A DNA stretch of 64,000 bases from Escherichia phage ManiWeber_Bas99. This document shows positions 5,483 to 54,891 of this stretch, piece by piece. The position numbers and the translations under genes were made by a program. Within the stretch, counting starts at the first letter, position 1. Each line of letters begins with the position of its first letter. The stretch is from the sequence record PQ850618.1; one strand, given 5' to 3'. Below the pieces are notes generated by a model, which was not told where the DNA came from, searched no databases, and worked only from the letters and a program-made list of their open reading frames with translations.

Positions 5483-6403
5483 ATGACGATACCAATCAAC
5501 ACATTCCCTCTATCTGGACAAACTCCAGTCTTGCCTGCGGTGTATGCTAATGGCTTGGCGATTGTCTCAGAATTCACTTCTGATAAAAACTTGATTGTTC
5601 CACTGAGCCCGCCGCTTGCATCGGGGTACAACTCAGTAGGTCAATTCTTTATGATTGGCAATGATGGCGATTCGACCAGCAAGCCTAATCTGACATTGTC
5701 TGTACCTAAGATGAACATCACCGACGTTCAAACTGGCTTGACTGCATCAACAATCACCATTGCTTTTGGAGAAGCAGTGATTATAGGAATGGAGTCTGGA
5801 GGGTCCAAGAATGCTGTCGCCGTTAAGGTAGTCAAATCCAGCGACAACCAATACACTTTACCAGCTGCGACGGCTTCCGTTCTCGGCGGCGTCAAAATAG
5901 GAAGCGGAATAAGCGTCGCAGGTGACGGTACAATTAGCGTCACTCAATACTCATTGCCGATTGCGTCAGCATCTACTTTAGGCGGCGTAAAGGTCGGTAC
6001 AACTCTATCAATTGATGGTTCCGGTGTGCTTAACGCAGCGGCAAGCACCGTCCAGAATGCCACGAACAGTGTTAGCAATCCTCCAACCACTTTGGTTAAT
6101 CTGGCAACATTAAACCTTCCTGCAGGCAAGTGGCTGGTCACGGCAAGCCAATTGACCGTTGCAACAGCAGGCGTTCAAGCGAATACCGGAATTACAGTCA
6201 AATTGTCAACAAGCAATTCAGATATTACGGATGATGCATTTACCATGTCAGCTGGCATTCGGGCTGCAGGTCGTTTCGGCGGCAACATCCCAACAAAAGT
6301 AATTACTCTTGCCGCGCCTGGTAATGTGTATTTAAACTATCAGTGCACCGACGCGTTGACATCTACCGTTTACGGACAGATCACCGCAATTAAGCTGAAC
6401 TAA
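5483..6403 (+). CDS. virion protein with tandem LGGVK(I/V)G repeats (fiber-like)
   Basis: ATG at 5483 with GAGGT SD; two repeats ASVLGGVKIGSGISVAGDGTISV and ASTLGGVKVGTTLSIDGSGVLNA; Gly/Thr/Ser-rich. Confidence 0.45.
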   Translation: MTIPINTFPLSGQTPVLPAVYANGLAIVSEFTSDKNLIVPLSPPLASGYNSVGQFFMIGNDGDSTSKPNLTLSVPKMNITDVQTGLTASTITIAFGEAVIIGMESGGSKNAVAVKVVKSSDNQYTLPAATASVLGGVKIGSGISVAGDGTISVTQYSLPIASASTLGGVKVGTTLSIDGSGVLNAAASTVQNATNSVSNPPTTLVNLATLNLPAGKWLVTASQLTVATAGVQANTGITVKLSTSNSDITDDAFTMSAGIRAAGRFGGNIPTKVITLAAPGNVYLNYQCTDALTSTVYGQITAIKLN

Positions 6404-6589
6404 AGAGGAAGTTATGCAAAAGATTATTCAGTCACGTTATGTTAAAGTGCGAAATATTAATTGCAACTCTTTGCTTTCTTGGAAATGGGCTGTTTATGAC
6501 TCGATGTTGATTGGCGTTTTAGTGGCAGGAGTGCTATTTAATATTCACTGAATTCATCGGCAAAGGATTGCCGAGAGTTTTATACGTAT

Positions 6590-6860
6590 AATGACGTATC
6601 ATCCGTATCAAGTAAGTTGTTGTTTTCAAAAGAATCTTACGGATGATACGGATGATACGCGTTGCCGCCGTACTATATAGGAATTCAAATAAATTAATTT
6701 AAAATTATATATCTAATTTAATTTTATTTTTTTATAAACTCTTATATGTGAAAAGTATCCGTATCATCCGTATCATCCGTATCACACCAGTGATAGCGCG
6801 GCTTATACACCGATACGGATAAAAATACGCCTCATTTTATCCGTATCATCCGTATCACAC
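6590..6860. repeat. iteron-like repeat element A
   Basis: Units of CATCCGTATCA in both orientations (6594-6610 forward, 6639-6660 reverse, 6756-6785 forward triple, 6811-6820 reverse, 6839-6858 forward) around an AT-rich core carrying GAATTC; homologous to the element at 58.7 kb. Confidence 0.6.
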
Positions 6861-6914
6861 TAATAAAGGCGCGGCTATATCGGTTGTTATACATATTCAA
6901 ACCATAATTATTGT

Positions 6915-6943
6915 TTGCCTAAGTTTTTTTCATTAGATATAAT
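6915..6943 (+). promoter_or_regulatory. sigma70-like promoter (TTGCCT-17-TATAAT) upstream of scaffold gene
   Basis: Hexamers at 6915-6920 and 6938-6943 with a 17-nt spacer, about 25 nt upstream of the start codon. Confidence 0.4.
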
Positions 6944-6966
6944 ACACAATACTTATTTGAGGGTGG

Positions 6967-8385
6967 ATGCGAATGCAAACGGCACGCGAAATTGACAAAA
7001 ATGGATTCTTGACGATTATGGGTTGTCCGATTTCGTCATTTGGCATTTTTGATTATTCTGCTGGTCAAGTTGGTCTTGATGGTGATCCGAATCGCATCGT
7101 AAAAGTCTATCGCCCTGAGTCAGCGGTGAAAGACCCCGAAGCGATAGATTCATTCAAAAATATCCCTTTCATCGACAATCACGAAATGCTTTCTGGATTT
7201 GAAGGTGATGAGGATAACACAGCACCCGAAGAGTATGGCGTTGATGGCGTTCTAACTGGCAATGTTTATTATGACAAGCCATGGATGCGCGGCGACCTTA
7301 AAGTGTTTAGCCGTCGTCTGAAGAAGGCCATTGATTCTGGAAAGGTTGACTTGTCTTTGGGCTATGACTGTGAATTCATCATACAGTCTGGAGAGTTTGA
7401 CGGGCAGCCGTATGAAGTGGTACAGACAACTCTTCGCGGCAACCACATTGCTCTCGTGGACGTTGGTCGAGTACCAGGTGCACGGGTGCTGGATGGTCGT
7501 TGCTTTGACCATCTTTGTTTGACGACTGTAACACCATCCAACGAGGATTTAGACATGCCAAAACCGTTAAAAGGTAAAGCGCGTGATAATGCTGTTGAAC
7601 AGCTGAAATCACTGATCCCTGCGCTCGAACAATTTCTGAATGAAGAGAGCACCGAAGCGGCTCATCAGGACGAAGTTGAAGTGAAAGCAGAAGAGAAGGA
7701 TTCAACCGAAGAACGTGAAGAAGTGATGGTTGATCCAGAAGTTAAAGCAGAAGCTGAAGAAACTCCAGAAGGTGAAGAGAAGTTTGAAGTTGAAACTGAA
7801 TCTCACGCTGGCGGCGAGCTTCCGCAACTGATCAGCCAAATCGAAGCACTTATTGCAAAACTGAAAGGTGGCGCGGTAGGTGATGAAGAAGAAGTTGAAG
7901 CCGAAGTCAAAGACGAAGAAGTTGAAGTCAAGGCTGAAGATGTATCACCTTGCGACAAAGCTGAAGATGTGGTTAGCGGCCTGCAAAACAGCAACGTAAA
8001 GGGGGCTTCGGTCGAAAAAGATGACAAACCGACAAAAGCGGCGAAAGCGTCGCCAGGTCCAGCAAAAGGGGAACACTCAATGGCATCTGATTCAGCAGTT
8101 GCTGCTTTCTACGCTGATTCTGCTCGTAAGAATAGCCTCTACCAGCGCCTGTCTAAAGTTGTTGGTGCCTTTGATCATGCAACTATGGACTCCAAGTCCG
8201 TAGCGAAATATGGCGCTAAAAAGTTAGGCTTGAAGTGCGTTGATGGTGCTGAGTTTGACGTGGTGGATAATTATCTGCGCGGCGTTGAACACGGTCAAAA
8301 ACAGCGTGTAGTCGCAAAACAAAAGGCCGCTGCGGATTCTGCAGCGACTGACGAAGCATTTGAAGCTTGGTTGAAAGGGGAATAA
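6967..8385 (+). CDS. scaffolding / prohead core protein
   Basis: 472 aa; N-terminal region resembles DUF2213-type phage head proteins (from memory, unverified); central acidic Glu/Lys/Val repeats typical of scaffold proteins; lies upstream of the capsid gene. Confidence 0.5.
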   Translation: MRMQTAREIDKNGFLTIMGCPISSFGIFDYSAGQVGLDGDPNRIVKVYRPESAVKDPEAIDSFKNIPFIDNHEMLSGFEGDEDNTAPEEYGVDGVLTGNVYYDKPWMRGDLKVFSRRLKKAIDSGKVDLSLGYDCEFIIQSGEFDGQPYEVVQTTLRGNHIALVDVGRVPGARVLDGRCFDHLCLTTVTPSNEDLDMPKPLKGKARDNAVEQLKSLIPALEQFLNEESTEAAHQDEVEVKAEEKDSTEEREEVMVDPEVKAEAEETPEGEEKFEVETESHAGGELPQLISQIEALIAKLKGGAVGDEEEVEAEVKDEEVEVKAEDVSPCDKAEDVVSGLQNSNVKGASVEKDDKPTKAAKASPGPAKGEHSMASDSAVAAFYADSARKNSLYQRLSKVVGAFDHATMDSKSVAKYGAKKLGLKCVDGAEFDVVDNYLRGVEHGQKQRVVAKQKAAADSAATDEAFEAWLKGE

Positions 8386-27874: not shown

Positions 27875-28519
27875 ATGATTAATGCAAACGTAATATCTAA
27901 AGGGACCGGATGCAGCATGGATGTTGCTGAAAAATGGGTCGACCCCTTCAAGCAGGCTTGTGAGCACTACGGAATCAAAAGCAAGAATGCCATCGCGGCG
28001 CTGCTTGCAAACGTAGGAGTGGAAACAGGCAGTCTGAAGACCTTTGTGGAAAACCTGAATTATTCCGCTCAAGGTCTTGCTAATACGTGGCCTAGCCGTT
28101 ACAGCGCCAGCGGTCGTTTCGGTGGCGCACCAAACTCCTTGGCATTGTCGATTGCCCGTAAACCAATGGAAATCGCCAATAATACATATGCAAACCGAAT
28201 GGGAAATGATTCGGTAGCATCTGGCGACGGTTGGAAGTACCGTGGCCGTGGTGCCATTCAGCTGACTGGAAAGGCTAACTATGCAGAGTATTCAAAACAA
28301 TCAGGGTATGACGCATTGAATAACCCTGACATTTTGACTGAGCCGAAATACATCGCTGACAGCGCGGCGTGGTTCTTCAAGAACAGCGGTTGCATTCCAC
28401 TTGCCGATGCGGGTGCATTTGATTCGACCGTGAAGCGGATTAACGGGGCCGCGCCGAATACGGCCAACCACGGGGATTTGCGACGGAAGCGTTACAAGGA
28501 TGCACTAGCAGTTATGTAA
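27875..28519 (+). CDS. endolysin, glycoside hydrolase family 19-like
   Basis: 214 aa; LANVGVETGSL...VENLNYS...YRGRGAIQLTGKANY fits the GH19 catalytic region. Confidence 0.65.
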   Translation: MINANVISKGTGCSMDVAEKWVDPFKQACEHYGIKSKNAIAALLANVGVETGSLKTFVENLNYSAQGLANTWPSRYSASGRFGGAPNSLALSIARKPMEIANNTYANRMGNDSVASGDGWKYRGRGAIQLTGKANYAEYSKQSGYDALNNPDILTEPKYIADSAAWFFKNSGCIPLADAGAFDSTVKRINGAAPNTANHGDLRRKRYKDALAVM

Positions 28520-28520
28520 G

Positions 28521-28551
28521 AAAAAGGCCCATATGGGCCTTTGTTTATTTT
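28521..28551. terminator. bidirectional rho-independent terminator
   Basis: AAAAAGGCCCATATGGGCCTTTGTTTATTTT: GC stem with A-run upstream and T-run downstream, between convergent genes. Confidence 0.6.
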
Positions 28552-28775
28552 ACGGCTTCAACCTGGACGGGTGGCGCGGAACTTGTATCAATGTCTGGCA
28601 AGTCGAAGTAATACCCCGCCATGCCAATCACGCCAACAATCGCGGCCCGTGCCACCTTGTTGCTAATTGACTCCCCAATAAGCTTTACCAACAGGGACAA
28701 GATTTGAGACGTCAAAGCCTTTTTCAGCCTTTTGTTTTCTTCCAAATCTTTCTGCATAACTACCACCCATGTCAA
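28545..28775 (-). CDS. small membrane protein (holin-like candidate)
   Basis: 76 aa with one hydrophobic segment AAIVGVIGMAGYYF; close to the endolysin but on the opposite strand. Confidence 0.35.
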   Translation of the reverse strand: MTWVVVMQKDLEENKRLKKALTSQILSLLVKLIGESISNKVARAAIVGVIGMAGYYFDLPDIDTSSAPPVQVEAVK

Positions 28776-29314
28776 CGCACATCCTGTGTCTTAACATTAC
28801 CTGAAGCATCTCTTAAGGGCAGTGGATAGTAGGCCATTTGGTAGTCTGATACGCCTTCAACATGATAAAACACGATTACGTCTTTGCTGTTGATGAGCAT
28901 GTTAACGACATCTGATTTATCTTCTGGAGTGAGTATGAGTGCGCCGCCTGTCCTGCTGTCTACTGCAACAGGGTATGTCTTGTCGACAAGGCCGCTGTCC
29001 AATGTATTATACCTGACAACGATTTCAGCGGCATCAACTTTTGCAATTGACATTCCGAACACAAACGAAACGACTTGGCGACCGCGATCATTCATTACGC
29101 ACATCTTTTCCTTATCAAACCTTTCCTTTATCACATCATATTTGTTCCAGCAAAATTCGAACGATTGGCCGTTGTTAAAATATCTCGTTAACACTTTGGC
29201 ATTACTATTTGGTGGCGTAAACATACTTTCAGCCGCTGCACTTTTGGTGAAGAACAAGACTGTCAGCATAGCCATGATGGTGATCAAAACAATCTTTAAA
29301 GTTTTCGATTTCAT
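28772..29314 (-). CDS. secreted protein of unknown function
   Basis: 180 aa with N-terminal signal peptide MKSKTLKIVLITIMAMLTVLFFTKSAAA. Confidence 0.5.
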   Translation of the reverse strand: MKSKTLKIVLITIMAMLTVLFFTKSAAAESMFTPPNSNAKVLTRYFNNGQSFEFCWNKYDVIKERFDKEKMCVMNDRGRQVVSFVFGMSIAKVDAAEIVVRYNTLDSGLVDKTYPVAVDSRTGGALILTPEDKSDVVNMLINSKDVIVFYHVEGVSDYQMAYYPLPLRDASGNVKTQDVR

Positions 29315-38845: not shown

Positions 38846-38872
38846 CAAAAAGGCCGCCCATTAGGACGGCCA
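38846..38872 (-). terminator. rho-independent terminator
   Basis: Minus-strand hairpin GGCCGTCC-TAAT-GGGCGGCC (one G-U pair) followed by TTTTT. Confidence 0.45.
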
Positions 38873-38887
38873 CAGATTCACGATTTG

Positions 38888-39439
38888 TTATACAGTGTAC
38901 GGAGTACCGTCTTGATTCAACCGCACGATGAATTTAAGGTCGACACCGATGATTTCACGAGTATCAAAGATTACATAGTTGTAACGACGCTGACCAGCAA
39001 TGTTTGGGTTGGTGTGAGAGTCGGTCACAACTTCCTGCGCAACCTGAATGCCTTCTTCTTTAAAGAACTTGCGCCATTCAGCAAGTTCAGCGGCAGTCAC
39101 GTGCATACCAAGATGGCTAACCTGATTGTCGTGCGCATCGATGTATTCGATGTTTTCGTGAATCCAGTTGCAACCTTTTGTATAGTCAAGAATTTCAAGC
39201 TCAAGAGGCTTACCAGCGCCGCCATCGGTGCCGTTGCCAGCCTGATAGTTGAAGCGCAAGTCAGCTTCGTTGGTGCAATCGCCGCGCTGACCCTTAAAGA
39301 CATCAGCTTCAAATACGCGACCAGTAGCAACAACGTGATCATGGAACCATTCTGTCAGGCCGATTTTAGCCAGGAAATTCTGTGCGCGCTGAGCACCTGG
39401 AATTGACAGGGCGATTTGTTCAATTTTAAAATGTGGCAT
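38888..39439 (-). CDS. hypothetical protein
   Basis: 183 aa ORF with no confident motif. Confidence 0.45.
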   Translation of the reverse strand: MPHFKIEQIALSIPGAQRAQNFLAKIGLTEWFHDHVVATGRVFEADVFKGQRGDCTNEADLRFNYQAGNGTDGGAGKPLELEILDYTKGCNWIHENIEYIDAHDNQVSHLGMHVTAAELAEWRKFFKEEGIQVAQEVVTDSHTNPNIAGQRRYNYVIFDTREIIGVDLKFIVRLNQDGTPYTV

Positions 39440-39459
39440 TTTGTTTCCTTAATTAAATA

Positions 39460-39630
39460 TTATTGATTAATTACTGTGTTGCCTTCGATGGAATAAGTCT
39501 CAATGGAACCGACGCGCTCGTGGTTAATCTTTGCGTTTTCGATTCTTATTACTTCAAATCCAACACCTTCTTGATCAATCTTCACTTCTGCTACGTCGCC
39601 AATCACTTCTACAACAACTTTGATAGTCAT
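39460..39630 (-). CDS. small hypothetical protein (56 aa)
   Basis: Fills the gap between two minus-strand genes; weak RBS; not in the ORF track. Confidence 0.3.
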   Translation of the reverse strand: MTIKVVVEVIGDVAEVKIDQEGVGFEVIRIENAKINHERVGSIETYSIEGNTVINQ

Positions 39631-39633
39631 GAT

Positions 39634-40317
39634 TTATTTCCCAAATGGAATATCAGTACCAGACATAAAGCGCCATGCGCCCGTAATTAAGATATGGCGA
39701 ATGAAGTCAGCAATTACTTGCGGCTCAGTCTCCAATCCATTCATCAGCGCCTTTTTCTGGTATTCAGCAGCATACTCAGGAGTCCAGCCGCGAGTCGCGC
39801 AAACAGCATCTTCAATCTGTTTGGACATGCCAGTACCACGTAGCTTATTAGGACTAATAGAAAATACCGTGATCCCGTATTTAGGCGTAAGCTCGTGAGC
39901 CATCTGCTTGCTAATCATGAGCGCAGCAGCCTTGGAAGCATTATAACACAAGCTGGATGTCATAGGAATATGCGCAGCGTTGGAAACGATATTGATCACA
40001 AAACCTTTGTTGTCGATAAGACTTTTCAGCGCGGCTTGAGTCGTGTTGACGAAAGAGAAGGCGTTGGTGTGCATAACGCGATTGAACTCTTCGTAGTTAA
40101 CATCTTCAAACCAGTTGTTGGAGTTGACGCCAGCACAGTTGATCAAGCCTTCTACATCATATGGGCTTAAAATTTCTTTCATCTGTTTCGCGTCGCGGAC
40201 GTCATATCCGTATGCTGAATCGATTCCAAGCACGTTATGACCGTAAGCGCCAAGGGTGTCAAAAATAGATTTACCAAGACCGGAATTGGAACCTGTTACA
40301 ACAATTACTTTTTTCAT
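39634..40317 (-). CDS. short-chain dehydrogenase/reductase (SDR)
   Basis: 227 aa; VTGSNSGLGKS (TGxxxGxG NAD(P)-binding) and YNASK (catalytic YxxxK). Confidence 0.7.
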   Translation of the reverse strand: MKKVIVVTGSNSGLGKSIFDTLGAYGHNVLGIDSAYGYDVRDAKQMKEILSPYDVEGLINCAGVNSNNWFEDVNYEEFNRVMHTNAFSFVNTTQAALKSLIDNKGFVINIVSNAAHIPMTSSLCYNASKAAALMISKQMAHELTPKYGITVFSISPNKLRGTGMSKQIEDAVCATRGWTPEYAAEYQKKALMNGLETEPQVIADFIRHILITGAWRFMSGTDIPFGK

Positions 40318-40382
40318 TTATTTATCCTTTTTGGACTTCGTTTCAATGAGATAAATATAACTCATCGAAACGCACAAGTAAA

Positions 40383-41255
40383 CTATTTATTGAAATTAAT
40401 ATTGTGGGTGTTGACGAGACGTTCACACATGGCGCTGTAAACACCATCGTCGTGTATAGAGTCTTCGTGCTTCAGGCCGCTGATTGCAAAGCGTGTAAGC
40501 TTGACAATCTTAAGCTCGAACAGATGCCACATGTGGTAGTCTTCCGGCGTTTTCAACGTTACGCCATTAGGGAAAAGCACCTGCATAACCTGGCCAACCA
40601 TCACGGCATTATCGCCATAGACAGCGTTGCGCTCACGGAAGGTTGCTGCCATTGCATCAAGAATATCGGCGGCAGTTGCCGGAGATTGTTCAACTTCCAC
40701 AGCCTTAGTCTCTTCTTGCCCTGTTGCGCTTGGATCAATTGCTAATTGTTGCACCACTTCACCTGCCTTGCAAAGATTAAATGTAAAAGCGATTTTATTT
40801 TGAGCAACGGAATTATAATACAATGCTTCATCTTGCATCCGCGCGAGCACGTCTTGTCGGTCGTCGAATACATTGATGATTCGATAATCGCCGTGCCGCA
40901 ATGCGTGCGATAGCCATGCAGATTTCATAATAGTTGATGGACGTTTGTCGCCATAGTCTCTCATCTTGATTGTAAATTCATCAAAAGGAAAAACATTGTC
41001 CAGACGTTCAAAAGTCACTTGTCTGTATTTTTCTGGCCTTGCAGTCCAATATTCAACCGCCTCACCGCGAAGAGATGCCGACTCTACTGCTGATGCAATG
41101 TGAGGATAGAACTGATCATAACCAATACCGCTGTGATAGTCATCATAGTCTGACAACGGACCTGCCACCTTGATGCGGTCTAAGCGCCAACGGTCATCAA
41201 ACAGCGTTCCGTCAAGGTCGAATACGTTTAATATTTGGTTATTTTTAATACTCAT
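40383..41255 (-). CDS. HAD-superfamily phosphatase fused to a domain of unknown function
   Basis: 290 aa; N-terminal FDLDGTLFDD is the HAD DxDGT nucleophile motif; C-terminal half unassigned. Confidence 0.5.
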   Translation of the reverse strand: MSIKNNQILNVFDLDGTLFDDRWRLDRIKVAGPLSDYDDYHSGIGYDQFYPHIASAVESASLRGEAVEYWTARPEKYRQVTFERLDNVFPFDEFTIKMRDYGDKRPSTIMKSAWLSHALRHGDYRIINVFDDRQDVLARMQDEALYYNSVAQNKIAFTFNLCKAGEVVQQLAIDPSATGQEETKAVEVEQSPATAADILDAMAATFRERNAVYGDNAVMVGQVMQVLFPNGVTLKTPEDYHMWHLFELKIVKLTRFAISGLKHEDSIHDDGVYSAMCERLVNTHNINFNK

Positions 41256-42061
41256 CCCTTTGACACTCCATCTTTAGCAACTGGATTGTTTGTGATTGGC
41301 GCGGCATCCCAAAACTGGATGCGCAACTCTTCTTGCTGTGCCGTGGTATCCATCCAATCACGATACCACGGGCAATGGGCTTTGCCATGACGAGGAAACG
41401 CGCATTTACCCATACCGATGCATTGCGGCTGTAGTAAAGGATTAGCCCATGGGTGCACCTTGAGGACTTCCGCAACCATTGCGCGAAATACTTCTTGATA
41501 CTCACCTTGTGTGCGCGTGCACAAGCGGTTTGACGCCATCTGCTGCAGCGTGCGCAAGTTGAACTTTGCCATGATATGCGTTTGCATATTAGAAGGCAAC
41601 ACGGCACGTGCATCCTGAATCTCTGCGCCAGCCGCGCGAAGTTCTTGATACAAAGCATCGATAGTCGCCATTGCATCATCCCATTTCTCTGCCAATGAGT
41701 GATGTCTTATGTGCACATCATCAAATGCATTTTCATCATTGCAGTCAGAAGGGTGCTCGAATGCCTTCGGACGAATCGCATCAAATGCAGAAGATTCCTG
41801 AGCGCGGCTGGTGCGTTCTTGGTATGCACCTGTGCGTGTGCGTACCATCTGATGAGTCATATTCTTTGATACAGCGGTGATGTCAAAGATATAGTCCACA
41901 AAGTCAAAAGGCGACTTGATGGTGTCAAGCATGTAGCGCCAATGCTCTTGCTTCTCTGATTCCGTCATCTCAGAGACAGGCTTACCAGTCATGCGCGTGT
42001 TCTTTGTTTCCAGCAAAAGGTCAAGTGCATCTTGGGTGTATCGAATTAATTCAACTTTCAT
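41252..42061 (-). CDS. thyX: flavin-dependent thymidylate synthase-like (ThyX family, variant motif)
   Basis: 269 aa; HQMVRTRTGAYQERTSR aligns with the ThyX RHRx7-8S signature but has Thr in place of His. Confidence 0.6.
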   Translation of the reverse strand: MKVELIRYTQDALDLLLETKNTRMTGKPVSEMTESEKQEHWRYMLDTIKSPFDFVDYIFDITAVSKNMTHQMVRTRTGAYQERTSRAQESSAFDAIRPKAFEHPSDCNDENAFDDVHIRHHSLAEKWDDAMATIDALYQELRAAGAEIQDARAVLPSNMQTHIMAKFNLRTLQQMASNRLCTRTQGEYQEVFRAMVAEVLKVHPWANPLLQPQCIGMGKCAFPRHGKAHCPWYRDWMDTTAQQEELRIQFWDAAPITNNPVAKDGVSKG

Positions 42062-42074
42062 TTTAATTATCCTA

Positions 42075-42521
42075 TTAACGGTAATTTACTAGTTGCTGAT
42101 CACCAGAGAAGGTGCAATGATAAACGAATTGTGCGTTATAAAGCAACTGAAAACTTTTCTTTGGTTCATTATTAGAACTCATTGATGTAAAGATTTCTGC
42201 ACCAGAACGATTTTCACCAATCAGGTTGATAAAGCCGCCAGTTGAACGAGGCTGAACGAAAGTGAAACGTTGCATCCACGGAGTGCGGTTGGCACCTTTC
42301 CCTGTGAATCCTTGAATCTGAATATTCAGGCCTTCTTGCTCGTTCACACCGATGTAAGTGGTAATTGTTGCGCCAGTCGTTGCTGCGGTCTTGCCGTCCA
42401 TCGCTTCGCAATCGTAAACAGCGATTGAATCTGAAGTACGGACAGCGGCTTCAGTCGCTTCCATATACATGGTTCCGAGAATAGCAGTTGCGGCAAGCGC
42501 GATTCCAGTGATTCGTTTCAT
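42075..42521 (-). CDS. secreted protein of unknown function
   Basis: 148 aa with N-terminal signal peptide MKRITGIALAATAILGTMYMEA. Confidence 0.5.
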   Translation of the reverse strand: MKRITGIALAATAILGTMYMEATEAAVRTSDSIAVYDCEAMDGKTAATTGATITTYIGVNEQEGLNIQIQGFTGKGANRTPWMQRFTFVQPRSTGGFINLIGENRSGAEIFTSMSSNNEPKKSFQLLYNAQFVYHCTFSGDQQLVNYR

Positions 42522-42586
42522 TTTCGTTTCCTCTATGAGTTCTGCTTCAATGATTAAAGTATACGCCCATTGAAGCAGAAAGCAAA

Positions 42587-43582
42587 TTATTTATTAGCAA
42601 TATAAGCAAATTTTTGATAGTTATTTGCTTTGATGAGTTTTTCAACTTCAACAAGGTCATGAGCAACGTCATCAAGCAAAATGTTTCGCCAAGTAGCGAA
42701 TCGACCGACACTAAATACGTTCAAATCCATGGTCAGCTGTAGGAGTAGAGCGTGTCGCAAGTCTTTCGGAATGTCGACAATCTTGCCATACTTCTGGTCG
42801 ACCTTTTCAACTTCTTCGAGAGCGATGTCACTCCATGAGAGGCCAAAGGCCGTCAACACTTCGTCGACTTCTGCGCGCAGCTTGATGTCACGGTAACGAG
42901 TAATGCCGCCAGCGGCTTCAACTGCGGCTTCACTTACGCTAACCAAAGGAATTGTTTCAATGATCAGCGTGTCACCAGTGATTGATGCGCGGTAAGTTCT
43001 GACGGAGTAGTCAGGAAAGTAAATGGTTTGATACAGTTCACACTTGCGTTTAATCTTAAAGCGGTAAACACGAATGTTTGCCTTGTCGAATGAGAAATCA
43101 ATCTTTTGATCAATCCCAGCAAGCTTCATTATGACTGGCAGCGGCGATGTGTTGATGATTGGCGTCTCGCTATAGCCGCAAAGAGTATCAACAGGAGTAT
43201 TAAAGAATATGCGGTCACCCAGTTTGTCGACAAGCTGATCATAAAAGTCATCAGGCGCAATATAACGCGTTGCAGTTTTAAGCTTCATGATTGAACGGCT
43301 GCCAAACTGATTGGTGACCTTCATGGAATACATATTGGCAAGGTTGATTGGGCAATGGTCGTGGTAGTAGTTGCCGCGAAAATACACAGCCTTGTCAACT
43401 GTCACGGCTTTAAAAGGGATTCCGGTAATACGGCTTACTTCTTCGCTGCGAAAGCGTAGCAATGCCTTGTGCTGTGGCGCTCGCTCCCCTGCTTCGTACA
43501 CAATAGAGTTCGGGAAGTGACACGCGGTAATAAGTCCTGCCAAACCGCCGCCGATAATCATTACAGGTTGTTTCATGTTCAT
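42587..43582 (-). CDS. Rossmann-fold FAD/NAD(P)-binding protein
   Basis: 331 aa; N-terminal VMIIGGGLAGL dinucleotide-binding motif; substrate unknown. Confidence 0.5.
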   Translation of the reverse strand: MNMKQPVMIIGGGLAGLITACHFPNSIVYEAGERAPQHKALLRFRSEEVSRITGIPFKAVTVDKAVYFRGNYYHDHCPINLANMYSMKVTNQFGSRSIMKLKTATRYIAPDDFYDQLVDKLGDRIFFNTPVDTLCGYSETPIINTSPLPVIMKLAGIDQKIDFSFDKANIRVYRFKIKRKCELYQTIYFPDYSVRTYRASITGDTLIIETIPLVSVSEAAVEAAGGITRYRDIKLRAEVDEVLTAFGLSWSDIALEEVEKVDQKYGKIVDIPKDLRHALLLQLTMDLNVFSVGRFATWRNILLDDVAHDLVEVEKLIKANNYQKFAYIANK

Positions 43583-43717
43583 TTGTCCTTTGTGGGTGAT
43601 ATGAGAAGTATAATAGCTAAATTATTTTACAGCAACAAGTCATTTCTATTTAGTACAGACGAAAAAAAGACCCACAACAAGTGTGGGTCAATTACCGCTA
43701 TATAACCGTCCTACAGG

Positions 43718-44563
43718 TTATTCCGCTTGATCACCGTCTTCAGCATCGTCGTTGGATTCAACATCGACAAACTCGATGTGACCCATCTCTTCCAGCTTGC
43801 TCAGGTAGGAGCGAACGGAAGCGCCAAACAGTTGATCTTTAACTTTTTCGCCCAGCTCATCGATAGACTGTGCCACACCAACTTCGCCTTCTTTGATCGC
43901 CGCCAGAACGCGTCCACGGGTGGAATGCTCTTGCGGCTGGCTCAGGCCGTTGCCAGTGTAGATGAAGTGAGTGGCTTTTGCACGACGCTGACCGTTTGCC
44001 TTTTTAGCAGCCTTACGTTCTGCGATGGCTTTGCGACGTTCTTCAGCTTCTTTCTTACGCTGTTCTTTCTGCTGTTCTGCAGCTTCTTTAGCCGCAATCT
44101 TAGCAGCTTCACGCTCTGCCTTGCGTTTCGCTTTAGCTTCTTCTTTGGCCTTTTCTTTTTCGGCCTTCGCTGCAGCACGGGCTTGATCACGCTCTGCTTT
44201 CTTGGCCGCAGCCTGCTCAGCTTTCAGGCGCTTGGCTTCTTCTTTAGCCTTTGCCTTTTCGATTTCTTTTGCTGCTTTAGCGGCTTCACGCTCTGCTTTC
44301 TTAGCAGCAGCCTTTTCTGCACGCTCTTTAGCTTTCTTAGCTGCTTCTTCAGCACGCTTCTGAGCCTTCTCATCAGCAGCCTGCTTGCGTTTCAACGCAG
44401 CTTCTTCACGCTTGGCTTGTTTTTCCTGCTCACGCTTCTGGCGTTTTTCTTCGGCTTCTTTCTTTTTAGCCAGGCGTTTTTCTTCAGCCACGCGACGACG
44501 TTCTGCTGCGGCTGCTTGTTTTTCTTCTTTAGATAATACTTTGATTGCTTCGGCCATATTCAC
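43718..44563 (-). CDS. Lys/Ala/Glu-rich low-complexity protein with globular acidic C-terminus
   Basis: 281 aa; about 170 aa of KAEREAAKAAKE-type repeats, then a non-repetitive domain ending in an acidic tail. Confidence 0.55.
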   Translation of the reverse strand: MNMAEAIKVLSKEEKQAAAAERRRVAEEKRLAKKKEAEEKRQKREQEKQAKREEAALKRKQAADEKAQKRAEEAAKKAKERAEKAAAKKAEREAAKAAKEIEKAKAKEEAKRLKAEQAAAKKAERDQARAAAKAEKEKAKEEAKAKRKAEREAAKIAAKEAAEQQKEQRKKEAEERRKAIAERKAAKKANGQRRAKATHFIYTGNGLSQPQEHSTRGRVLAAIKEGEVGVAQSIDELGEKVKDQLFGASVRSYLSKLEEMGHIEFVDVESNDDAEDGDQAE

Positions 44564-46265: not shown

Positions 46266-46294
46266 AGTATAATTGCAGATATAGTATAAAGCAA
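46266..46294 (-). promoter_or_regulatory. leftward sigma70-like promoter (TTGCTT-17-TATACT)
   Basis: Read on the reverse complement; in the divergent intergenic region upstream of the minus-strand replication operon. Confidence 0.45.
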
Positions 46295-46330: not shown

Positions 46331-46358
46331 TTGACTTTGTATCACTCAATATTATACT
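46331..46358 (+). promoter_or_regulatory. rightward sigma70-like promoter (TTGACT-16-TATACT)
   Basis: TTGACT at 46331-46336 and TATACT at 46353-46358, about 30 nt upstream of the primase start. Confidence 0.45.
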
Positions 46359-53594: not shown

Positions 53595-53625
53595 AAAGGT
53601 GAGCTAAATGCTTGCCTTTTCTTTT
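53595..53625 (+). terminator. rho-independent terminator (copy 1 of a duplicated cassette)
   Basis: AAAGGUGAGC-UAAAU-GCUUGCCUUU (two G-U pairs) followed by UCUUUU. Confidence 0.5.
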
Positions 53626-53640
53626 ATCAATACTTATACT
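53612..53640 (+). promoter_or_regulatory. sigma70-like promoter (TTGCCT-17-TATACT) overlapping the terminator
   Basis: The -35 lies inside the terminator 3' arm; -10 TATACT at 53635-53640. Confidence 0.4.
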
Positions 53641-54846: not shown

Positions 54847-54877
54847 AAAGGTGAGCTAAGTGCTTGCCTTTTTATTT
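54847..54877 (+). terminator. rho-independent terminator (copy 2 of the duplicated cassette)
   Basis: Near-identical to the 53595 hairpin, followed by TTATTT. Confidence 0.5.
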
Positions 54878-54891
54878 GTCTGTATTATACT
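54864..54891 (+). promoter_or_regulatory. sigma70-like promoter (TTGCCT-16-TATACT) overlapping the terminator
   Basis: Same architecture as the 53612 promoter. Confidence 0.4.

Follow-up and report, generated by a model that had tools for sequence, protein, structure and literature searches.

Most products of the replication and nucleotide-metabolism operon of Escherichia phage ManiWeber_Bas99 are cytoplasmic enzymes, and the question raised by positions 42075 to 42521 of the DNA analyzed here (sequence record PQ850618.1; a stretch of 64,000 nt, hereafter "the window") is why a gene for a protein with an apparent export signal should be embedded among them. A preliminary description of the sequence had noted at this site a 148-aa open reading frame (ORF148) between ThyX-like and Rossmann-fold genes, had ascribed to it a typical Sec signal peptide, and had pointed out that early-expressed periplasmic phage proteins are often superinfection-exclusion or receptor-masking factors.

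ORF148 is a genuine gene under constraint

The 148-aa ORF was found exactly where it had been placed, on the minus strand at 42075..42521. Starting with ATG, it encodes a 16.2-kDa precursor followed by a stop codon and has a good ribosome-binding site, GAGGA (42529..42533, minus strand), 7 nt 5′ of the ATG and conserved in the 15 genomes compared. The region shows 91 to 96% DNA identity to 28 Wifcevirus genomes, the closest being HermannAdler_Bas98. Conservation in related phages was borne out as well: the gene is intact and full length in 28 of 28 Wifcevirus GenBank records, with 94.6 to 100% amino acid identity, and its 90% cluster comprises 104 distinct sequences, the length being 148 aa in all 15 of those listed. 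ORF148 corresponds to vBEco4M7_81, Bas98_0052, and CPT_Mansfield_071, and its annotation is "hypothetical" in every record. Members of Wifcevirus are virulent E. coli/Shigella myoviruses with a genome of ~68 kb.

Selection was analyzed by Nei-Gojobori counting on the orthologues of ORF148 and its neighbors from 15 genomes. ORF148 had a dN/dS ratio of 0.062; in the same genomes, the ratios of the UGM-like gene, thyX, and the SDR gene were 0.025, 0.14, and 0.058, respectively. Sixty-five of the 148 codons were variable, 52 of them with synonymous changes only and 13 with nonsynonymous changes. Codons 1 to 25 had accumulated five synonymous and no nonsynonymous changes, indicating that the protein is translated from M1 and making the internal Met18 and Met20 unlikely starts. 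Codon usage, GC content, and GC3 were the same as in the neighboring genes. ORF148 is thus a genuine gene under constraint.

From 43582 down to 38888, every gene lies on the minus strand, and the unit is bracketed by intrinsic terminators, one closing the upstream unit (43669..43689, minus strand) and the other ending the cassette after the glyoxalase-like gene (38852..38871, minus strand; annotated in phage Mansfield as well). In order, the genes are UGM-like, ORF148, ThyX, HAD/PNKP-phosphatase-like, SDR, small ORF, and glyoxalase-like. ORF148 occupies a slot whose upstream border is the gene for the UGM-like FAD/Rossmann protein (42587..43582, minus strand; phrog_4828). Homologs of this protein, the N-terminus of which contains GxGxxG, occur in 361 phage records; the UGM-like call is an HHpred assignment in the phage Mansfield record, and UGM-like similarity was not detected by phmmer against the PDB. 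The other border of the slot is thyX (41252..42061, minus strand; Pfam Thy1, 1.2e-29), which starts 13 nt past the ORF148 stop codon with no terminator in between. The flanking genes and the operon of cytoplasmic enzymes given in the preliminary description hence stand, as a co-oriented, terminator-bracketed unit.

Predicted export signal and mature domain

The N-terminus was judged by classical rules, i.e., n-region charge, h-region hydrophobicity, and the residues at −3 and −1, and not by a trained predictor. By these rules, the Sec signal peptide previously ascribed to ORF148 could be recognized in residues 1 to 25 (MKRITGIALAATAILGTMYMEATEA; 42447..42521, minus strand) as a predicted signal peptidase I substrate, with cleavage before AV. 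The n-region is MKR (+2) and the h-region extends from I4 to M20 (ITGIALAATAILGTMYM), with 17 residues, none of them charged. Its best 10-residue Kyte-Doolittle window is 2.27, which falls between the MalE and OmpA signal sequences. In the c-region, EATEA, the small neutral residues T and A occupy −3 and −1, so that cleavage is predicted after Ala25 (TEA/AV).

The rule is a lax one, passed by 22 of 338 ORFs including the FAD-binding N-terminus of the neighboring gene. Among the plausible genes passing it, the full three-part layout was seen by inspection only in ORF148 and in the gene at 28772..29314. The latter had been described as encoding a second secreted protein next to the lysis region; it indeed exists, on the minus strand, beside a gene annotated as "lytic enzyme" in relatives, and its signal peptide is far more hydrophobic than that of ORF148. 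Paralogy of the two proteins was rejected (BLASTP E value 0.66; global z −0.3).

The best 19-residue Kyte-Doolittle window of ORF148 is 1.38, lower than the usual transmembrane threshold (~1.6) and short of what an integral membrane protein or signal anchor would show (at least ~19 residues with a mean of at least ~1.6), and the protein has no other hydrophobic segment. There is no lipobox of the form L-[AS]-[GA]-C, the first Cys being residue 38, 13 residues past the predicted cleavage site, and no Tat twin-arginine motif of the form S/T-R-R-x-F-L-K, the n-region MKRITG having a lone Arg after Lys. Overall, the sequence makes it highly probable that the ORF148 product is exported from the cytoplasm. 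Nine of the 17 h-region residues are Gly, Ala, Ser, or Thr and the segment is only moderately hydrophobic, yet a canonical cleavage site is present; with such an h-region, an uncleaved or signal-anchor-release (SAR) form, as in T4 RI (PMC6832632), is possible.

The predicted mature domain (42078..42446, minus strand) has 123 aa, 13.6 kDa, and a pI of 6.8, is hydrophilic in composition, and is predicted to be all-beta, with 7 to 8 short strands. It contains exactly two Cys residues, both invariant in the 15 genomes: Cys38 (codon at 42408..42410, minus strand; mature position 13), which is matched in alignments by the first Cys of the gp076-type proteins of Kylevirus discussed below, and Cys136 (codon at 42114..42116, minus strand; 12 residues before the C-terminus), which is also invariant in the cross-genus alignments. 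From the sequence we infer a Cys38-Cys136 disulfide.

AlphaFold2 gave all-beta models both from the single sequence (pLDDT 41.5) and from a six-sequence alignment (pLDDT 46.8). Foldseek matched the first model to LolA/lipocalin-like structures (best E value 9e-3, TM <0.5), and the fold search with the second model returned weak matches to C2-like sandwiches. As the two sets of matches disagree and the models are of low confidence, we assign no fold beyond "all-beta." Two specific candidates were rejected. A Y-x-C near the start of ORF148, an SGA motif, and the Cys near the end had prompted comparison with the MliC/PliC lysozyme inhibitors, a family whose MliC members carry an SxSGAxY loop in an 8-stranded barrel; there was no match to the Pfam model (PF09864), and hhalign against E. 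coli MliC gave a probability of 0.2% and the global comparison a z of 1.7. An outer-membrane beta-barrel of the Lom/Ail/OmpX type was discarded because ORF148 ends in LVNYR (no C-terminal aromatic residue), its mature part has 123 aa versus at least ~140, and Pfam returned nothing.

Searches for homologs gave a uniformly narrow picture. A word-indexed search of 5.8 billion proteins found none beyond Wifcevirus, and an exhaustive phmmer search of 1.84 billion representatives recovered Wifcevirus copies only, as did tblastn against phages and plasmids, blastn against E. coli genomes, and IMG/VR. There were no matches in Pfam, PHROGs, NCBIfam, PADLOC, or PDB sequences, permissive thresholds included (Pfam nil even to an E value of 10), and thus no similarity in these five collections to a known exclusion protein or defense-related model.

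The variable slot, its Kylevirus occupants, and the promoter

The interval between the UGM-like gene and thyX differs from one phage group to another. It is empty (~80 nt) in Xanthomonas phage XcP1 and Aeromonas phage Gekk3-15, contains an unrelated 86-aa ORF without a signal peptide in Serratia phages SMP and Hera (Myosmarvirus), and holds five small, unrelated, nonsecreted ORFs in Pseudomonas phage 14-1 (Pbunavirus). Since the slot is either empty or filled with unrelated ORFs in these other relatives, ORF148 is a lineage-specific accessory insertion in a permissive slot and not a component of the enzyme pathway. The match of its GC content, GC3, and codon usage to those of the neighboring genes led us to reject a recent horizontal acquisition and indicates that the insertion is old.

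Kylevirus, a group of Pantoea phages, is the closest outgroup, and here the slot holds one or two signal-peptide proteins. These comprise Kyle gp076 (138 aa), Kyle gp077, a 138-aa protein of PA1, and the metagenomic P0004 and P0005 (128 aa each), the genes for which also lie between the UGM-like gene and thyX. All five have AxA-type (Sec-type) signal peptides and are annotated as hypothetical. Kyle gp077 is annotated with a GTG start, but the resulting extension spans a TTGACG-N17-GATAAT promoter; hence, the true start is probably Met24, which would give MKRFIIAAAAIVAASTLCPVAVHA/ESS.

The Kylevirus slot proteins are only 15 to 24% identical to ORF148 and have mature domains of ~101 to 108 aa, ORF148 being ~15 residues longer. 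The gene position is nevertheless the same, and the gp076-type proteins, like ORF148, have a Cys at mature position 13 and another 12 residues before the C-terminus; gp077 also has two Cys residues, but at slightly different positions, and its match is weak (z 2.2). Motifs common to ORF148 and the gp076-type proteins are Y-x-C, Y-x-G-[VA]-[DN], F-x-[QH]-P, and C-x-[FL]-[ST]..[LI]V. In a MAFFT alignment of ORF148, its cluster representative P0001, and four gp076-type proteins, nine columns were invariant, i.e., Y11, C13, Y31, G46, F63, P66, G82, C111, and V120 (mature numbering).

Pairwise statistics were in conflict. BLASTP between ORF148 and the Kylevirus slot proteins was not significant (E value >0.5), and hhalign gave an E value of 0.19 over the last 15 residues/columns only. 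Permutation z scores from global Needleman-Wunsch alignments against ORF148 were 5.6 for Kyle gp076, 4.6 for P0005, 4.1 for P0004, 2.4 for PA1, and 2.2 for gp077; 62 decoy ORFs of comparable length had a mean of −0.2 (SD 1.0, maximum 2.7). No further members turned up when the combined ORF148/Kylevirus alignment was used for a profile search, and scanning IMG/VR with the Kylevirus alignment retrieved phage Kyle itself and nothing more. Considered together with the position and signal peptide that ORF148 and the Kylevirus proteins have in common, the sequence comparisons suggest that they belong to a small, fast-evolving Wifcevirus/Kylevirus slot family, for which distant homology is likely. 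ORF148 is 22% identical to Kyle gp076 while nine neighboring proteins are 43 to 67% identical between the same genera, indicating that the slot protein changes much more rapidly from one host genus to another; within Wifcevirus, however, its conservation is tight.

A further feature of the slot genes is the presence of a sigma-70-like promoter element upstream, in Kyle and PA1 as in ORF148. That of ORF148, TTGCTT-N16-TATACT (42558..42585, minus strand), lies directly upstream of the gene and is nearly invariant in the genus, as is the 65-nt upstream spacer as a whole (15 genomes). Three copies of TTGCT-N16..19-TATACT are present in the window, versus 0.09 expected, and all three are intergenic and on the minus strand, one each ahead of ORF148, the UGM-like gene, and the gene heading the helicase unit; a second such element is found at 43607-43635, after the terminator that closes the upstream unit. 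When the pattern is relaxed, sites on the plus strand in front of the primase gene and early-region genes match as well. In Kylevirus, each slot gene has a near-consensus TTGACA/TTGACG/TTGCTT-N17-GATAAT before it, and a run of 12 nt (TTGCTTTCTGCT) in the window recurs unchanged upstream of Kyle gp076. Judging from the consensus match, ORF148 probably has its own host-type promoter, which would fit early expression. The early expression suggested in the preliminary description is therefore plausible, given this element and the near-consensus Kylevirus counterparts.

The arms of a perfect 13-bp inverted repeat with a 15-nt spacer (42540..42580, minus strand; dG −20.9 kcal/mol, z −2.8) flank the −10 hexamer. 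The repeat occurs once in the window, its arms are identical in 15 of 15 genomes, and only two loop bases have changed, in a single genome. An intrinsic terminator was rejected, as there is no U-tract; the sequence could be an operator or form an RNA hairpin in read-through transcripts.

Possible roles at the cell envelope

The closest functional parallel is T4 Spackle (Sp, gp61.3), an early periplasmic protein that has a signal peptide and a disulfide and inhibits the tail lysozyme. It sets the precedent for a soluble periplasmic binder that keeps superinfecting phage out by inhibiting a murein hydrolase carried on the tail (PMC7677548). Like ORF148, Spackle is small, comes from a virulent E. 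coli myovirus, has an N-terminal export signal and one Cys pair, and is encoded among early/replication genes, away from the lysis genes. It differs in its mature part, an alpha-helical bundle of 75 aa versus 123 aa and a predicted all-beta structure in ORF148, and the two have no sequence similarity by Pfam, PHROG, or PDB comparison.

The following sequence of events can be envisaged. ORF148 would be transcribed early by the host RNA polymerase, probably from its own promoter plus read-through from the upstream promoter. The precursor would be exported via Sec and cut after Ala25, yielding a soluble periplasmic beta-protein of ~13.6 kDa in which the Cys38-Cys136 disulfide would join the first and last strands. 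The product would most likely act by binding an envelope partner, since it appears too small and featureless for an enzyme. The partner we favor is something on which incoming phages of the same kind rely, e.g., the virion-borne murein transglycosylase; by binding it, ORF148 would keep out superinfecting phage or guard the cell against lysis from without, as Spackle does in T4. By analogy with Spackle, exclusion of superinfecting phage or protection of the envelope is our leading guess, to which we would give a probability of roughly 0.35. No exclusion phenotype is reported for Wifcevirus in the literature examined, and the ORF148 gene is undiscussed in the BASEL study, according to which these phages need an O-antigen receptor (PMC11990801).

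In the published mass-spectrometry tables for vB_Eco4M-7 and ECML-117, neither the ORF148 counterpart vBEco4M7_81 nor its equivalent in ECML-117 is listed; in the same tables, the neighbors gp77 and gp83 were detected, and a 79-kDa murein transglycosylase was present in both phages (PMC7048862). ORF148 hence does not appear among the proteins of purified particles as a virion structural protein would.

Two other kinds of phage gene invite comparison. T5 Llp (PMC9586334) and T1/phi80 Cor are likewise phage-encoded, exported early envelope proteins that block reinfection, but they are lipoproteins with a lipobox Cys, whereas ORF148 has no Cys in its first 37 residues, and they concern a protein receptor such as FhuA, as opposed to the O-antigen receptor of Wifcevirus. 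Morons, which are autonomous insertions of a promoter and gene into phage genomes, resemble ORF148 in being lineage-specific genes between conserved genes, with their own promoter-like element and a function unrelated to that of the neighbors. Unlike a moron, ORF148 has no terminator of its own (thyX follows after 13 nt), belongs to a virulent and not a temperate phage, and matches its genome in composition. We regard ORF148 as a member of a small family that is new, although phage genes of this general kind are familiar.

A broader and more speculative version, which we regard as rather unlikely, is that ORF148 and the Kylevirus slot proteins form one unrecognized family of promoter-equipped, disulfide-stapled periplasmic beta-proteins expressed early by virulent Enterobacterales myoviruses to control the envelope. 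Their purpose might be to exclude relatives via the virion murein hydrolase or a block of DNA entry, with a fold and mechanism unrelated to those of T4 Spackle, Imm, Llp, or Cor. If so, the divergence between genera and the tandem duplication in phage Kyle would reflect an arms race.

Wifcevirus phages are candidates for E. coli O157 control and form part of the BASEL collection, and most of their genes are without known function. An early exported protein is one of the few routes by which a virulent phage can act on the envelope from inside. Should ORF148 block reinfection or modify the envelope, the behavior of phage cocktails would be affected, as related phages could interfere with one another. 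On the same condition, ORF148 would bring a new type of protein to the few soluble periplasmic exclusion factors and provide a handle on a fast-evolving locus common to Wifcevirus and Pantoea phages; if it has no such role, it is one more conserved orphan gene. The tools to address this exist: Bas98-101 can be grown on an engineered E. coli K-12, and for vB_Eco4M-7 there is a published synthetic-genome system.

The alternative that fares best is that ORF148 modulates the host envelope or counters a host defense in aid of its own infection instead of blocking other phages. It would bind and inhibit a target in the periplasm or outer membrane, for instance a protease, a nuclease of which EndA is an example, a murein hydrolase, or a part of the O-antigen/LPS machinery. 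The evidence for export applies equally to this explanation and to superinfection exclusion. The pattern of divergence, which tracks the host genus between Escherichia and Pantoea phages while the protein is conserved within the genus, would fit a host-specific partner, and the dependence of Wifcevirus on the O-antigen receptor (PMC11990801) also speaks in its favor. No candidate partner was found, however, and ORF148 bears no likeness to known periplasmic inhibitors, as seen above for MliC and Pfam, and we consider host modulation unlikely.

Less probable again is that ORF148 sets the timing of lysis in the manner of the T4 RI antiholin, through a SAR N-terminus and a periplasmic domain that binds a holin or lysis protein. 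The N-terminus of T4 RI resembles a cleavable signal and is only weakly hydrophobic. ORF148 is similarly a small phage protein with a predicted periplasmic location and a weakly hydrophobic N-terminus, as its Gly/Ala/Ser/Thr-rich h-region and low 19-residue window illustrate. T4 RI is periplasmic, being first tethered to the membrane by its SAR N-terminus (PMC6832632), and the very short latent periods of Wifcevirus phages (PMC11990801) would be compatible with a lysis regulator. Against this, ORF148 has a canonical −3/−1 cleavage site, lies in the replication region ~13 kb from the lysis-gene region (27875..29314), and shows no similarity to RI in PHROGs or Pfam. Moreover, the partner of RI is the T holin, and no related holin was found here.

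That ORF148 is not exported at all, its N-terminus being part of a cytoplasmic fold or a membrane tether of a protein that works with the nucleotide-metabolism enzymes, seems to us very unlikely. This would account for its location among cytoplasmic enzyme genes with which it is probably cotranscribed, the signal-peptide rule does yield false positives, and the protein-level invariance of the N-terminal 25 residues is unusual for signal peptides, even if only ~2 changes would be expected there by chance. However, the enzyme cassette is found without ORF148 in the Xanthomonas, Aeromonas, Pseudomonas, and Serratia relatives, all five Kylevirus-type slot counterparts start in a signal-peptide-like manner despite ~20% identity, and the paired invariant Cys residues suit an oxidizing compartment.

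Finally, a spurious or decaying ORF, which the restriction of homologs to two phage genera and the lack of domain matches might suggest, is effectively refuted by the selection analysis (dN/dS 0.062), by the intact 148-aa frame in all 28 records, and by a conserved ribosome-binding site and promoter element along with a codon usage equal to that of the neighboring genes.

Enzyme cassette and the slot holding ORF148

ORF148, the gene for a 148-aa signal-peptide protein (window positions 42075 to 42521, minus strand), lies within a terminator-bracketed cassette on the minus strand (38852 to 43689) that encodes a UGM-like FAD protein, ThyX, a HAD/PNKP-phosphatase-like protein, an SDR, and a glyoxalase-like protein. 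The cassette, which might constitute a pathway for nucleotide or DNA modification, is largely conserved, whole or in part, in Wifcevirus, Pbunavirus, Myosmarvirus, Carpasinavirus, Kylevirus, and one Aeromonas phage. The contents of the slot between the UGM-like gene and thyX vary by genus: five unrelated small ORFs of 68 to 87 aa in Pbunavirus (Pseudomonas phage 14-1, positions 6036 to 7163 of the extracted locus) and a single 86-aa ORF in Myosmarvirus (Serratia phage SMP, locus positions 5993 to 6253). None of these slot ORFs has a signal peptide. The slot looks like a general hotspot where lineages carry genes of their own.

In Pantoea phage Kyle (NC_048796.1), of the closest outgroup, Kylevirus, the slot encodes gp076 and gp077. 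As annotated, gp077 (positions 7600 to 8046 of the extracted locus) begins at a GTG that adds 23 residues overlying a TTGACG-N17-GATAAT promoter. Its true start is likely an ATG (MKRF...) at locus position 7977; this codon is served by an AAGGA ribosome-binding site and gives a product starting with a clean signal peptide. A copy of the same promoter precedes both gp077 and gp076, and this suggests that the two genes are a tandem duplication.

Between the helicase gene and the cassette is a minus-strand gene (43718 to 44563) for a Lys/Ala/Glu-rich protein of 281 aa, whose annotation reads "TolA-like" or "putative structural protein." The gene is kept in every relative examined, and mass spectrometry of phage preparations has detected the protein (PMC7048862).

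Promoter-like elements and an inverted repeat

A family of elements of the form TTG(C/A)(T/C)T...TATACT occurs in intergenic positions ahead of replication- and early-region genes, on the minus strand at 43607 to 43635 and 46266 to 46294 and on the plus strand at 46331 to 46358, 53612 to 53640, and 54864 to 54891. The loose form of this pattern gave 8 matches versus about 2 expected. These elements are candidate early promoters of the ManiWeber_Bas99 phage group.

Upstream of ORF148, the arms of a perfect 13-bp inverted repeat (42540 to 42580) lie on either side of the -10 hexamer in the promoter-like element. The repeat occurs once in the window and could serve a phage regulator as its operator. 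Its arms do not differ among the 15 genomes compared. In Kylevirus, the promoter spacer at the same place carries a different small palindrome, GCTCA-AGGA-TGAGC.

Second secreted protein and putative lysis region

The other secreted protein (180 aa) has a very hydrophobic signal peptide and homologs with 37 to 38% identity in Pantoea phages PA1 and Kyle. The end of its gene and the beginning of a 76-aa ORF with a C-terminal hydrophobic segment share 4 nt. The pair (28545 to 29314, minus strand) is convergent with a plus-strand gene (27875 to 28519) called "lytic enzyme" in relatives. In PA1, an 8.5-kDa "lysis-related protein" adjoins the endolysin (PMC11538084) and may be the counterpart of the 76-aa ORF.
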